Shown here piece after piece: positions 7,966-25,080 of a stretch of DNA of 30,913 bases. The stretch covers positions 1-30,913 of the forward strand of contig JANNJF010000105.1 of the NCBI GenBank assembly GCA_031405715.1, in the 5' to 3' direction. Made by a program: the position numbers and the translations under genes. Under the pieces are notes generated by a model, which had not been told where the DNA came from, did no database searches, and saw nothing but the letters and a program-made list of their open reading frames with translations. This stretch comes from Gammaproteobacteria bacterium. GTDB lineage: Bacteria; Pseudomonadota; Gammaproteobacteria; Acidiferrobacterales; UBA6901. Each line of letters opens with the position of its first letter. Positions within the stretch are counted from its first letter, which is position 1.

Positions 7966-8084
7966 GGAACCTCTGAACAAGTGGCACAACCCATCTGGCT
8001 TTCGTTCCCTCACCTGTGGGTAGTGCCTCCCCGAAGGGGCCCGAAGTGCGCGGGGGAGAACAAGGGGGCTTGTTCAGAGCCTCT
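7966..8084 (+). repeat. Intergenic repeat/MITE-like element, copy 1 (short form)
   Basis: Begins GGAACCTCTGAACAAGTGGCA (same as 24885) and ends CTTGTTCAGAGCCTCT (11-bp core inverted repeat CTCTGAACAAG). Contains the GTGCCTCCCCGAAGGGG unit at 8016-8039. Confidence 0.8.
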
Positions 8085-16422: not shown

Positions 16423-16929
16423 ATGCACGCCAGCACCAAACGGAATCCCTCCCTCAGTCAAGATATCCCGCACCATGGGACACTTAACCTAACGGACACC
16501 ACAGCATGCGATGCGTTGACGACAGTGGCCCAGGCACTGGACACGCTGCGCAACGGGCAGGTGTTGCTGGTCACCGGCGATGTCCCCGGTATCGAAGGTG
16601 ATCTATTTTCCTGGGCCAACCACAACAATAACCAGATCCTCGCCGTCAATCGGACACTGAAGGCGGGCCTTGGCTTTTACCTCCTCAAGGGCGACCCGTG
16701 GCCCGTGGATGTCACCCTGGATACCCAGACGGCACCGTGCCCGACACCGGTGGTAATGAGCGCGCGCACGCTGGCAAGCATGCGCTCGGGCCAATACCTG
16801 CGCCTTTCCACCGCCTGCCATGCAGCGGTGAGTGAGGTGGATGTGTGGCTGCGATGCACCCGCCACCGGCTGCTGGGCATTACGGAAGATGCGCGTGGTG
16901 TCTACCGGTTTTATATGCGCAAGACGTGA
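16423..16929 (+). CDS. Tandem TusA/SirA-like domain protein (putative sulfur carrier)
   Basis: ATG 16423 with AGGA upstream. Two ~75-aa repeats: LNLTDTTACDAL...LRNGQVLLV...W and LDTQTAPCPTP...MRSGQYLRL...W...YRFYMRK; CPxP motif in the second repeat. Confidence 0.75.
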   Translation: MHASTKRNPSLSQDIPHHGTLNLTDTTACDALTTVAQALDTLRNGQVLLVTGDVPGIEGDLFSWANHNNNQILAVNRTLKAGLGFYLLKGDPWPVDVTLDTQTAPCPTPVVMSARTLASMRSGQYLRLSTACHAAVSEVDVWLRCTRHRLLGITEDARGVYRFYMRKT

Positions 16930-16947
16930 TCGGCGCGTCACCCCAAC

Positions 16948-17154
16948 GCAGCTTACAGAACAAGTTCCCTCTCCGTGCGGTTTTTGCCTCCCCGAAGGGG
17001 GCCCGCGCACTTCGGGGGAGAAGGTTAGGGTGTGGGGGATAATCAGCGATTTTTCCTCACCCTGTCCCCCTCCGTGCGGGTTGTGCCTCCCCGAAGGGGG
17101 CAAAGGGGAGAGGGAACGTAGCGTGACAGCTTCTGCTACTTGTTCAGAGGCTCC
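16948..17154 (-). repeat. Intergenic repeat/MITE-like element, copy 2 (reverse orientation, carries two 27-nt inserts)
   Basis: The reverse complement of 17131-17154 is GGAGCCTCTGAACAAGTAGCAGAA, 22/24 identical to 24885-24908. The internal BoxC-like hairpin pair aligns with copy 3. Flanked by CTAG at 17155-17158. Confidence 0.85.
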
Positions 17155-17199
17155 CTAGGTGTAGAGATCGAACTACCGCTTGTGCTGGTCGTGCATTTA

Positions 17200-19146
17200 C
17201 TACGTCGTCGATTCATTCTTCAGCACTAATATGGACAACGGCGGCAGCGTCAACACCAACGAATGATGCTGGCCGTGCGCCGCTACCGGCATAGCCTGCG
17301 CCCCGCCGGAATTGCCCTGGCCACTACCGCCGTATTCCCGCGCATCGCTGTTCAGCAACTCGCGCCAATAGCCACCACTGGGCACACCAACACGGTACTG
17401 CATGCGTGGTACAGGCGTGAAGTTGCAGACCAGCAGCACCTGGTCGTGCGGGTCTTTGGCCTTGCGCAGGAAACTGATGACACTGTCCTCCCAATCCTGG
17501 GCGTCGATCCACTGAAAGCCAGGCTGATCGAAATCAATCTCGTACAGCGCCGGTTGCCGCCGGTATAACTGGTTAAGATCCCGCACCCAATGCTGCAGTC
17601 CATGGTGCGGCGCTTCCTTCAGCAGATGCCAATCCAGGCTACGCTCGTGGTACCACTCGTTGCGCTGCCCGAACTCAGCGCCCATGAACAGGAGTTTCTT
17701 GCCGGGATGCGCATACATGTAGCCGAACAACAGACGCAGGTTGGCGAACCGCTGCCAGTCATCCCCTGGCATGCGGCTGAGCAGCGAACCCTTGCCGTGC
17801 ACCACTTCGTCGTGGGACAACGGCAGGACGAAATTTTCGGTAAACGCATACCACAGGCTGAAGGTCAGTTCGTTGTGGTGATACTTGCGATGGATTGCAT
17901 CGTGCGCCATGTAGCTGAGGTTGTCGTGCATCCAGCCCATGTTCCACTTGTAGCCGAAACCGAGGCCGCCCACCGTGGTCGGCCGTGACACCATGGGCCA
18001 GGCGGTGGATTCCTCGGCGGTGGTCTGCACGTCCGGATGCGCACCATACACCGCCTCATTCAAGCTGCGCAGAAAATGGATCGCCGCGATATTCTCCTTG
18101 CCGCCATATTCATTCGGTATCCATTCACCCGGCTGGCGCGCATAATCGAGATACAACATGGAGGCCACCGCGTCCACGCGCAGCCCGTCGATGTGGTAGC
18201 GCTCCAGCCAGAACAGTGCGCTGCTGCCGAGGAACGAACGCACCTCATGCCGCCCGTAGTTGAAGATATGGCTGCTCCACTCCGGATGAAAACCCTGACG
18301 CGGGTCGGCATGTTCGAACAGATGGGTACCGTCGAAATAGGCCAGCCCATGTTCATCGTTGGGAAAATGCGACGGCACCCAATCGAGGATGATGCCGATG
18401 CCGTGCTGGTGCAGTGTGTCCACCAGATACATGAAATCCTCGGGCGCGCCGTAACGCGCGGTGGGTGCGAAAAAACCGGTGCACTGGTAGCCCCAGGACC
18501 CATAAAACGGATGCTCCGTCACCGGCATCAGTTCCACGTGGGTAAAGCCCATCTCCTGCACATACTGCGGCAGCGTCGCGGCCAGCTCGCGGTAGGTCAG
18601 AAACCGGTTTGCCTCTTCGGGGATCCGGCGCCACGATCCCAAGTGGACTTCGTAAATGGACATGGGGGCGTCGTGTGCACTGGCGTTTTTGCGCTGCGCC
18701 ATCCAGGCGGCGTCGTTCCATTGATACTGCAGATCCCGGACCACCGATCCGGTGCGCGGCGGTACCTCGCTGCACACGGCAAACGGGTCGGCCTTGTTGG
18801 CGCGGTAACCCAGGTGGCGCGAACGGATGTGATACTTATAGATAGCCCCGGCCTCAACCCCGGGCTGAAATATCTCCCACACCGCCGATCCATCCTGGCG
18901 CACGGTCATCCCGTGGGCCTCCGGATTCCAGCCGTTGAAATCACCCACCAGGGACACCGACTCGGCATTCGGCGCCCAGACGGAAAAGTGCACACCTTGC
19001 TTGCCGTCCCTCTCCATCATGTGCGCGCCGAGCTTGTCGAACAGACGGAAGTGGCTGCCTTGCTTGAGTAAATATATATCGTAGTCCGTCAGCTCGGCTG
19101 ACGCTGGCGCCGTCGGTTTTTTCTCCCTGGTTTTTTCTTCAGCCAT
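17200..19146 (-). CDS. glgB: 1,4-alpha-glucan branching enzyme (GH13, short N-terminus form)
   Basis: [44 protein letters not shown] (catalytic D), AEEST (E) and [10 protein letters not shown]. Confidence 0.97.
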
Positions 19147-24869: not shown

Positions 24870-24884
24870 TAGATATTCACACAA

Positions 24885-25061
24885 GGAACCTCTGAACAAG
24901 TGGCAGAAATTATCATGTTAGGTCCCCTCTCCCTTTGGGAGAGGGACAGGGTGAGGGAAAAATCCATGATCATCCCCCTCACCCTAACCCTCTCCGTGCG
25001 GTTTGTGCCTCCCCGAAGGGGGCCCGAAATACGCGGGGAGAGGGGACTTATTGGAGGTTCC
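24885..25061 (+). repeat. Intergenic repeat/MITE-like element, copy 3 (177 bp)
   Basis: Left end GGAACCTCTGAACAAGT; right end reverse-complements to GGAACCTCCAATAAGT. Internal CCCTCTCCC-ttt-GGGAGAGGGACAGGGTGAGGG ... CCCCTCACCCTAACCCTCTCC...GGAGAGGG. Flanks are ACAA/ATAA. Confidence 0.85.
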
Positions 25062-25080
25062 ATAACGACCGATACGCGCC

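Follow-up and report, generated by a model that had tools for sequence, protein, structure and literature searches.

A 27-nt non-coding sequence behaves as a discrete insertion module in repeat hairpins of a gammaproteobacterium and its sister species

A 27-nt sequence recurs in arms of C-rich hairpins of a larger repeat in the window, that is, the whole stretch of 30,913 nucleotides analyzed here. Comparison within and between genomes indicates that it behaves as an insertion module that is discrete, non-coding and bounded by fixed ends, and not as a fixed ancestral part of its host repeat. The unit is present in at least four contexts without homology across the junction, namely a 5-nt-spacer hairpin, the two strands of a 15-nt-spacer hairpin and, at the end of glyQ, a repeat unrelated to these, and at single loci sister species differ by the gain or loss of exactly 27 nt. 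To explain this behavior we propose a two-layer model, to which we give a probability of roughly 55%: de novo insertion is rare, and passive or templated spread and loss are commoner. In the first layer, a defined 27-nt piece would enter at a DNA hairpin tip or beside it, probably during replication while the DNA is single-stranded, through an enzyme or a polymerase-switch event. In the second layer, the unit would ride along whenever the host MITE transposes, would be copied in short tracts among roughly 200 near-identical hairpins by gene conversion or replication template switching, with neighboring arm nucleotides carried too, and would be removed by hairpin-templated repair that restores the perfect palindrome. 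We argue for rare true insertions because of the identical ends in the non-homologous contexts and the polarity of the glyQ event, and for mostly passive or templated spread and loss because of class-specific variants, the transfer of an arm together with the unit and the perfectly matched arms at empty sites.

The window is contig C105 of genome G000, a fragmented assembly of 865 contigs (3.87 Mb, 59% G+C, 90% complete). All genomes used here are short-read MAGs, so that copy numbers are lower bounds and occasional mis-joining of repeat interiors is possible. A degenerate 27-mer matches the plus strand of the window three times with 0 mismatches (16975–17001, 17074–17100 and 24996–25022), whereas 100 dinucleotide-preserving shuffles of the window gave 0 matches. 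The three copies, a 24-nt variant and a pair of an empty and a filled hairpin, all described in an earlier note on this DNA, are real. That note had placed copies 1 and 3 in the 5′ arm of the host element and copy 2 on the opposite strand, which is wrong: copies 1 and 2 occupy the top strand of one host MITE, and copy 3 occupies the opposite strand. The host MITE consists of a left repeat, a hairpin of the 15-nt-spacer type (H1), a GGGTGAGGG/CCCTCACCC stem, a hairpin of the 5-nt-spacer type (H3), about 23 nt and a right repeat. The following features of the window are relevant:

7966 to 8084, plus strand: short-form host MITE with a degenerate unit
8016 to 8039, plus strand: degenerate 24-nt unit copy within the short-form host MITE, two mismatches to the 24-nt pattern
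16958 to 17154, plus strand: host MITE 1 (nhmmer family, alignment), with H1, the central stem, H3 and the right inverted repeat, the left inverted repeat being truncated; carries units 1 and 2
16975 to 17001, plus strand: unit copy 1, in the 5′ arm of H1 on the top strand of host MITE 1, exact pattern match
17074 to 17100, plus strand: unit copy 2, in the 5′ arm of H3 of host MITE 1, top strand like copy 1, exact pattern match
24885 to 25061, minus strand: host MITE 3, inverted in the window, with H3 empty (24925–24945) and H1 filled (24988–25044)
24925 to 24945, no strand assigned: empty target hairpin composed of CCCTCTCCC, a 3-nt loop and GGGAGAGGG, one of 91 empty 5-nt-spacer hairpins
24996 to 25022, plus strand: unit copy 3, in H1 of the inverted host MITE and hence on the host bottom strand, 3′ arm in host orientation (pattern match and MITE alignment)

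Copy 1 is flanked by CCCTCTCC on its left and by CCCG..CGGG and GGAGAAGG on its right, with one mismatched position between the two arms. Copy 2 stands between CCCCCTCC and CAAAG GGAGAGGG, and the hairpin that contains it (17066–17114) is the filled counterpart of the empty one at 24925–24945. The degenerate 24-nt copy is preceded by CCCTCACCT. Rfam covariance models gave no match near any gathering score in the region 16800–17300.

According to an nhmmer search, the host MITE family has about 60 full-length copies of about 165 bp in G000. In alignments, its members end in 17-nt terminal inverted repeats beginning GGAACCTCTGAACAAGT and are bordered by YTAR duplications. We take these ends to resemble those of IS5, and no full-length IS carrying them is assembled in G000. 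Between the terminal repeats the copies fall into two size classes of 75–100 bp (13 copies) and 150–175 bp (39 copies), and the short forms derive from filled MITEs by deletion between the two direct repeats of CCCTCTCC (L066 compared with C670). Whole MITEs are in many cases found in one species and missing from another. Since so many insertions differ in presence between sister species, the family has been active recently. At one site (G004:C343, L096, and G000:C128), a host MITE is found in opposite orientations in two species, reflecting either independent insertions at a shared hot spot or inversion of the element between its terminal repeats.

The unit occupies H1 and H3 on either strand, which gives four classes of filled site. 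G000 has 37 occurrences of the 14-nt unit core, and a 24-nt pattern allowing up to two mismatches recovers 38 unit copies, a collection that under-samples decayed copies and is biased towards intact ones. Tabulating the spacer from CCCTCTCC to GGAGAGGG across G000 gave the following distribution:

5 nt: 91 hairpins, empty
15 nt: 79 hairpins, empty
32 nt: 10 hairpins, and one more of 31 nt, filled (5 + 27)
42 nt: 11 hairpins, and four more of 41 nt, filled (15 + 27)

Both hairpin types therefore occur empty and with exactly 27 additional nucleotides, and empty hairpins predominate (170 against about 26 filled, or about 87%). The extra block always lies directly 3′ of CCCTCTCC and directly 5′ of a C. 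Its boundaries are fixed to the nucleotide, and a target duplication is absent. Among 96 distinct copies, which come from four species, the bases at –8 to –1 are CC(C/T)TC(T/G)(C/A)C, and a C follows at +1 in 92. The word preceding the unit is the canonical (T)CTCC in about 70 of these copies and a linked CTCGAC in 19; the few others include GGCA in the glyQ-type repeat, and none shows a duplication. G000 contains 540 strand-specific CC[CT]TCTCC^C sites, of which 390 lie in hairpins. Every unit in this genome is inside a repeat hairpin and a free one was never found, so that the earlier description of an ultra-short unit with a consistent site in hairpin arms is borne out by the 96 copies, and the flanks tabulated genome-wide in G000 read CC(C/T)TCTCC^C in repeat hairpins, in line with the predicted CTCC^C. 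No hairpin of G000 carries a unit in both arms; a single one in G002 does. In the sister genomes, the unit also resides in at least three other repeat families having CC(C/T)TCTCC stems.

Its range is narrow, comprising a few uncultured relatives of sulfur bacteria. Within the family, we found 38 copies in G000, 35 in G002, 23 in G004 and 8 in G003, in addition to one degenerate copy in G009. The unit is absent from G001, a 94% complete genome of the same genus in which one copy of the host MITE was seen, and from 13 other genomes of the family set. An exact-pattern scan of 185,579 species genomes returned, besides G000, only three MAGs from glacier-fed streams (GFS_11195, GFS_6843 and GFS_7679) and one “uncultured Acidiferrobacteraceae” MAG, all four being Acidiferrobacterales-like relatives. 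A metagenome scan with the neighboring TusA-like protein yielded a single locus, from another species and with no MITE there.

These counts bear on the view that the larger repeat contained the unit from the start and that the empty hairpins arose by deletion. Exact deletion could occur by hairpin-templated repair, and at one locus the filled state is common to orthologues of two species. Nevertheless, about 87% of the hairpins are empty, G001 has the host MITE and no unit, and the outgroups are empty at the glyQ site described below, which already contradicts an ancestral origin; moreover, the ancestor would have needed units in four positions, and no hairpin of G000 is filled in both arms. 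The host family points the same way. After removal of the units, the nearest relative of each filled full-length MITE of G000 was an empty copy (13/13, at up to 97.4% identity), and the filled copies are scattered among empty ones on a maximum-likelihood host tree, where the 13 fills require 13 changes, although this tree is weakly resolved with 35 of its 52 branches open. Identity to the consensus is similar for units and hosts (0.926 and 0.920), a comparison that is uninformative given how the units were collected. We therefore regard an ancestral origin as highly improbable, and the scenario that the earlier note had set against its own reading, an ancestral unit with a one-off deletion in copy 3, fails on the state of G001 and on the scattered fills.

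Next, we compared orthologous loci between species, and these differ by exactly 27 nt between G003 and G000 and between G002 or G004 and G000. Filled and empty states do occur at orthologous loci, a comparison that the earlier note had suggested. In the MITE shared by G003:C140 and G000:C851, the left flank and most of the element are identical, and the main difference is an exact 27-nt block in H3, with a few further differences near the far end of the MITE. In the ruvA-ruvB spacer, the hairpin contains the unit in G002:C329 and G004:C201 and is empty in G000:C590. The same spacer (about 860–1000 in G000:C590) harbors two to three tandem hairpin-containing repeats whose number varies by species. 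A third orthologous pair is filled in G004:C120 and empty in G000:C655, and here the filled allele reads CTCGAC where the empty one reads CTCTCC. Some insertions predate the species split, since the orthologous MITEs of G002:C85 and G000:C198 are both filled. Upstream of glcD, at the locus of copy 3 (window 24870–25065), three species show three states: a full MITE with H1 filled in G000, no MITE in G003:C97, and a short MITE with a CTCGAC-haplotype unit in G002:C216. For four further filled MITEs of G000 (C426, C647, C453 and C334), the match to the relatives covers the flanks and stops where the MITE begins, so that these loci give no filled/empty comparison; this pattern suggests that the host insertions there are species-specific. 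For most orthologous pairs, including those of C851 and C590, gain cannot be distinguished from precise loss because a usable outgroup is lacking, and polarity is established for one event only, at the end of glyQ.

The glyQ gene encodes the alpha subunit of glycyl-tRNA synthetase. At its 3′ end, a different repeat of about 55 nt supplies the last codons (roughly 20) of the gene, as seen by comparing G000:C117:2391-3134 (L106/L110), G003:C89 (L102) and G002:C209 (L104). This repeat carries a unit variant at GGCA^C in G003 and G002, where it adds nine codons in frame, and it is empty in G000, in G001 and in G010, a member of another genus. The unit at the end of glyQ is an insertion, polarised by outgroups, into a context without homology to the MITE hairpins. 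Two further copies of the glyQ-type repeat in G002 contain the unit variant with a GCA loop. The approximately 55-nt repeat itself is dispersed in many genomes of the order. One possible reading of a tentative kind is that a dedicated activity integrates a defined 27-nt ssDNA piece site-specifically next to hairpin tips. If this were true, no smaller bacterial mobile element would have its gain at orthologous loci demonstrated, and the unit would be able to add nine in-frame codons even to the essential gene glyQ.

The unit is not identical in all of its sites. Variants follow site class: GGGTTGTG is found in H3-top and GAGCGGTTTATG in one subfamily of the MITE; the filled copies of the glyQ-type repeat, three in G002 and one in G003, all have the GCA-loop variant. 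Because variants track site class, much of the copy number can be ascribed to riding with hosts or to copying within a class. A second pattern concerns the junction. In 19 of the 96 copies, the preceding word is CTCGAC and the unit starts with C, instead of the canonical CTCTCC followed by G, and there are no intermediates. This discrete haplotype occurs in several host families and several species and was seen only beside a unit; genome-wide scans of hairpin spacers and arms captured no empty hairpin with CTCGAC, and neither ssDNA folds nor inspection identified a template for the three-base change. A third pattern lies in the arms themselves. Empty hairpins have perfectly complementary arms in 192 of 194 cases, leaving two with mismatches, as compared with 18 of 62 filled hairpins, in which the mismatches fall mostly on the unit-proximal arm. 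In five of these 18, a CCCTCTCC-type arm is paired with a GGAGAAGG partner. Together with the pair G004:C120/G000:C655, the mismatches indicate that either the bases to the left of the unit were copied in with it, or the opposite arm served for repair when a unit was lost. Both options are templated events and not a simple 27-nt cut-and-paste. Template switching, which the earlier note had mentioned as an alternative, thus fits better than an HUH/RAYT-like enzyme, as the hairpin arm adjoining the unit travels with it.

Such a footprint, together with the class-specific variants and the old orthologous filled copies common to G000 and G002, could also be accommodated by one or very few illegitimate insertions, all other copies being products of gene conversion, MITE amplification, spacer inversion and quasi-palindrome deletion, with no insertion machinery of the unit's own. 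The top and bottom forms of the 5-nt-spacer hairpin would indeed be interconvertible by spacer inversion, as judged from their sequences. Yet this scheme has to account for identical 27-nt ends in the contexts that lack flanking homology across the junction, for the inner 7-nt loop of H1, which keeps host orientation in both unit orientations and so provides no simple inversion link, and for the copy at the glyQ site, which brought no donor arm. We consider it unlikely. The two-layer model, which retains rare insertions beside templated copying, also meets a difficulty: homology alone cannot explain the exact right-hand junction across contexts.

Since the earlier note had suggested an HUH/RAYT-like enzyme, we also looked for candidate enzymes. 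G000 has nine genes with weak matches to PF01797 (Y1 transposase/RAYT-like). None of them is beside a unit or a target hairpin, their flanks being other repeats or none, and accordingly the proposed search for RAYT or TnpA genes next to units gave no adjoining gene. Two orthogroups, of C10 type and C485 type, have no close orthologue in the unit-free G001. The C10-type gene is syntenic, single-copy and chromosomal, and the fifth unit-bearing MAG offers no better match to it than one of 44% identity. Taking flanks, orthogroups and presence in five genomes together, no phyletic link between RAYT-like orthogroups and the unit holds. Searches with the 5′ and 3′ halves of the unit revealed no gene-bearing element with its ends, only two truncated copies split by IS, and neither an enzyme nor a donor intermediate for de novo insertion was found. 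The truncated copies (5′ 12 nt and 3′ 21 nt; G000:C800 at about 4597 and G000:C43 at about 1477, both on the minus strand) abut similar inverted ends. From the sequence, it looks like an IS landed inside a unit and broke the assembly, possibly with a TTGTG duplication.

The strand on which the unit lies was scored by GC skew, a proxy applied to short contigs. Its top strand is on the C-rich strand (negative GC skew) in a ratio of 18:5 in G000, counted on unit-carrying contigs of at least 4 kb with four of the 23 cases in one contig, and of 27:28 in the relatives (28/55). The skew in G000 may be due to chance or non-independence. In ssDNA folds, the unit adds its own GAA-loop mini-hairpin to the host stem with no striking gain in energy.

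Based on these data, we assessed whether the unit could be a miniature single-strand transposon, spread mainly by an HUH enzyme (RAYT or IS200/IS605 TnpA-like) acting in trans. This enzyme would cut after CTCC and after the 3′ mini-hairpin on hairpin-prone ssDNA, resulting in precise excision and in insertion 3′ of the target word. Such a mechanism agrees with the absence of a target duplication, the insertion 3′ of a fixed short word, the exact excision-like empty sites, the terminal GAA-loop hairpin and the recurrence of the same ends in the unrelated glyQ repeat. It also has candidates in the nine PF01797-like genes, two types of which are without a close orthologue in G001. On the other hand, no such gene adjoins a unit or target hairpin and the repeats flanking these genes are unrelated, the C10-type gene has the conserved chromosomal setting and the distant match described above, the target word at glyQ differs (GGCA^C) with no covarying “guide” seen, and the GC-skew bias of G000 did not recur in the relatives. 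Finally, cut-and-paste leaves both the co-transferred arm bases and the variants that track site class unexplained. We thus judge this mode of spread to be rather unlikely, and the enzyme suggested in the earlier note did not find support in gene neighborhood, phyletic distribution or strand bias.

The closest parallels to the unit are the small dispersed repeats SDR4–6 of the Nostocaceae, reportedly described by Elhai and colleagues in 2008 (Genome Res 18:1484). The HIP1 palindrome is given as an insertion site of SDR5 (PMC5861425). The SDRs resemble our unit in being 21–27 nt long, non-coding, nested in other repeats, inserted at a palindromic site and narrow in lineage range. They differ in that their sequence is unrelated and that our unit targets the arm of MITE hairpins; orthologous filled and empty sites and co-transferred flanking arm bases are further features of the unit described here. 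Being shorter than 30 nt, dispersed, nested and precisely inserted relative to orthologous sequence, the unit works like an SDR, a descriptive class that implies no sequence relation to the cyanobacterial repeats. If integration were by a dedicated activity, the unit would offer a tractable gammaproteobacterial counterpart to them. Few pieces of DNA seen to be gained and lost as a whole are as small as this one, and it bears on how repeats of less than 30 nt spread without coding capacity, a question dating from the cyanobacterial SDRs. It brings to this question another lineage, unrelated to the first, in which the target is sharply delimited (CC(C/T)TCTCC^C in the arms of hairpins), loci of sister species differ by precisely the unit, one insertion is polarised by outgroups, and neighboring arm bases leave a footprint by changing together with the unit. 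Whether such repeats spread by transposition or by templated copying thereby becomes testable.

Several other known systems share individual features with the unit. Members of the IS200/IS605 family insert 3′ of a short specific word without duplication, leave seamless empty sites and possess an end hairpin, and the unit is alike in these respects. IS200/IS605 elements and PATEs differ in having more than 100 nt, separate left and right hairpins and a strand bias, whereas the unit is 27 nt long with a single hairpin, lacks a linked TnpA, shows a GC-skew bias in G000 that did not recur in the relatives, and has flanking bases that change with it. Insertion 3′ of a fixed tetra- or pentanucleotide without target duplication is common to PATEs and the unit; of the two subterminal hairpins and the TnpA (Y1) partner of a PATE, we found a single 3′ hairpin and no gene-bearing element with these ends. 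The terminal inverted repeats and target duplication of classical MITEs are both lacking in the unit and both present in its host element. ERIC and other enterobacterial MITEs exist with or without an extra internal block (about 70 bp) at a fixed site, and work on them did not center on gain or loss at orthologous loci; the block described here has 27 nt and lies in several unrelated host repeats. In quasi-palindrome template-switch mutation and hairpin-templated correction, known from the work of Ripley and of the Lovett laboratory, sequence is made or removed from a local palindrome. This process fits the exact removal of the unit with restoration of a perfect palindrome and the matched arms of empty hairpins (192/194), but falls short in that it does not itself bring one foreign 27-mer into different hairpins. 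Nested units of this kind also matter when MAGs are assembled and annotated, because they create MITE length variants, break contigs and can lengthen proteins in frame.

REP and REPIN elements are likewise hairpin-forming, 20–40 nt long and present in many copies, and REPs can be in frame in genes, as the unit is in glyQ. The unit differs in that only 11 of its 27 nt are palindromic and that it was never found outside a host repeat. A REP tag (GTAG/CGTC) does not occur in the 96 copies, which start with GTGC and end with GGGGG. The palindrome or inverted doublet of a REPIN is also missing: only CCCC-GAA-GGGG pairs, and the copies are single except in the one doubly filled hairpin of G002, with none such in G000. 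REP/REPIN elements are mobilised by RAYTs, as stated by Bertels and Rainey (2011; PMC3116915) and Di Nocera et al. (2013; PMC3733652), and section 7 of the latter places some REP families inside other palindromes. No cognate RAYT flanked by the unit was found among the nine PF01797-like genes of G000. Several of these genes (at C559, C396 and C10) have unrelated palindromic repeats of their own on their flanks, one such repeat being a GTAGGGTGCGC-type REP with 15 copies, and because of this arrangement we conclude that classical REP–RAYT systems coexist with the unit in G000.
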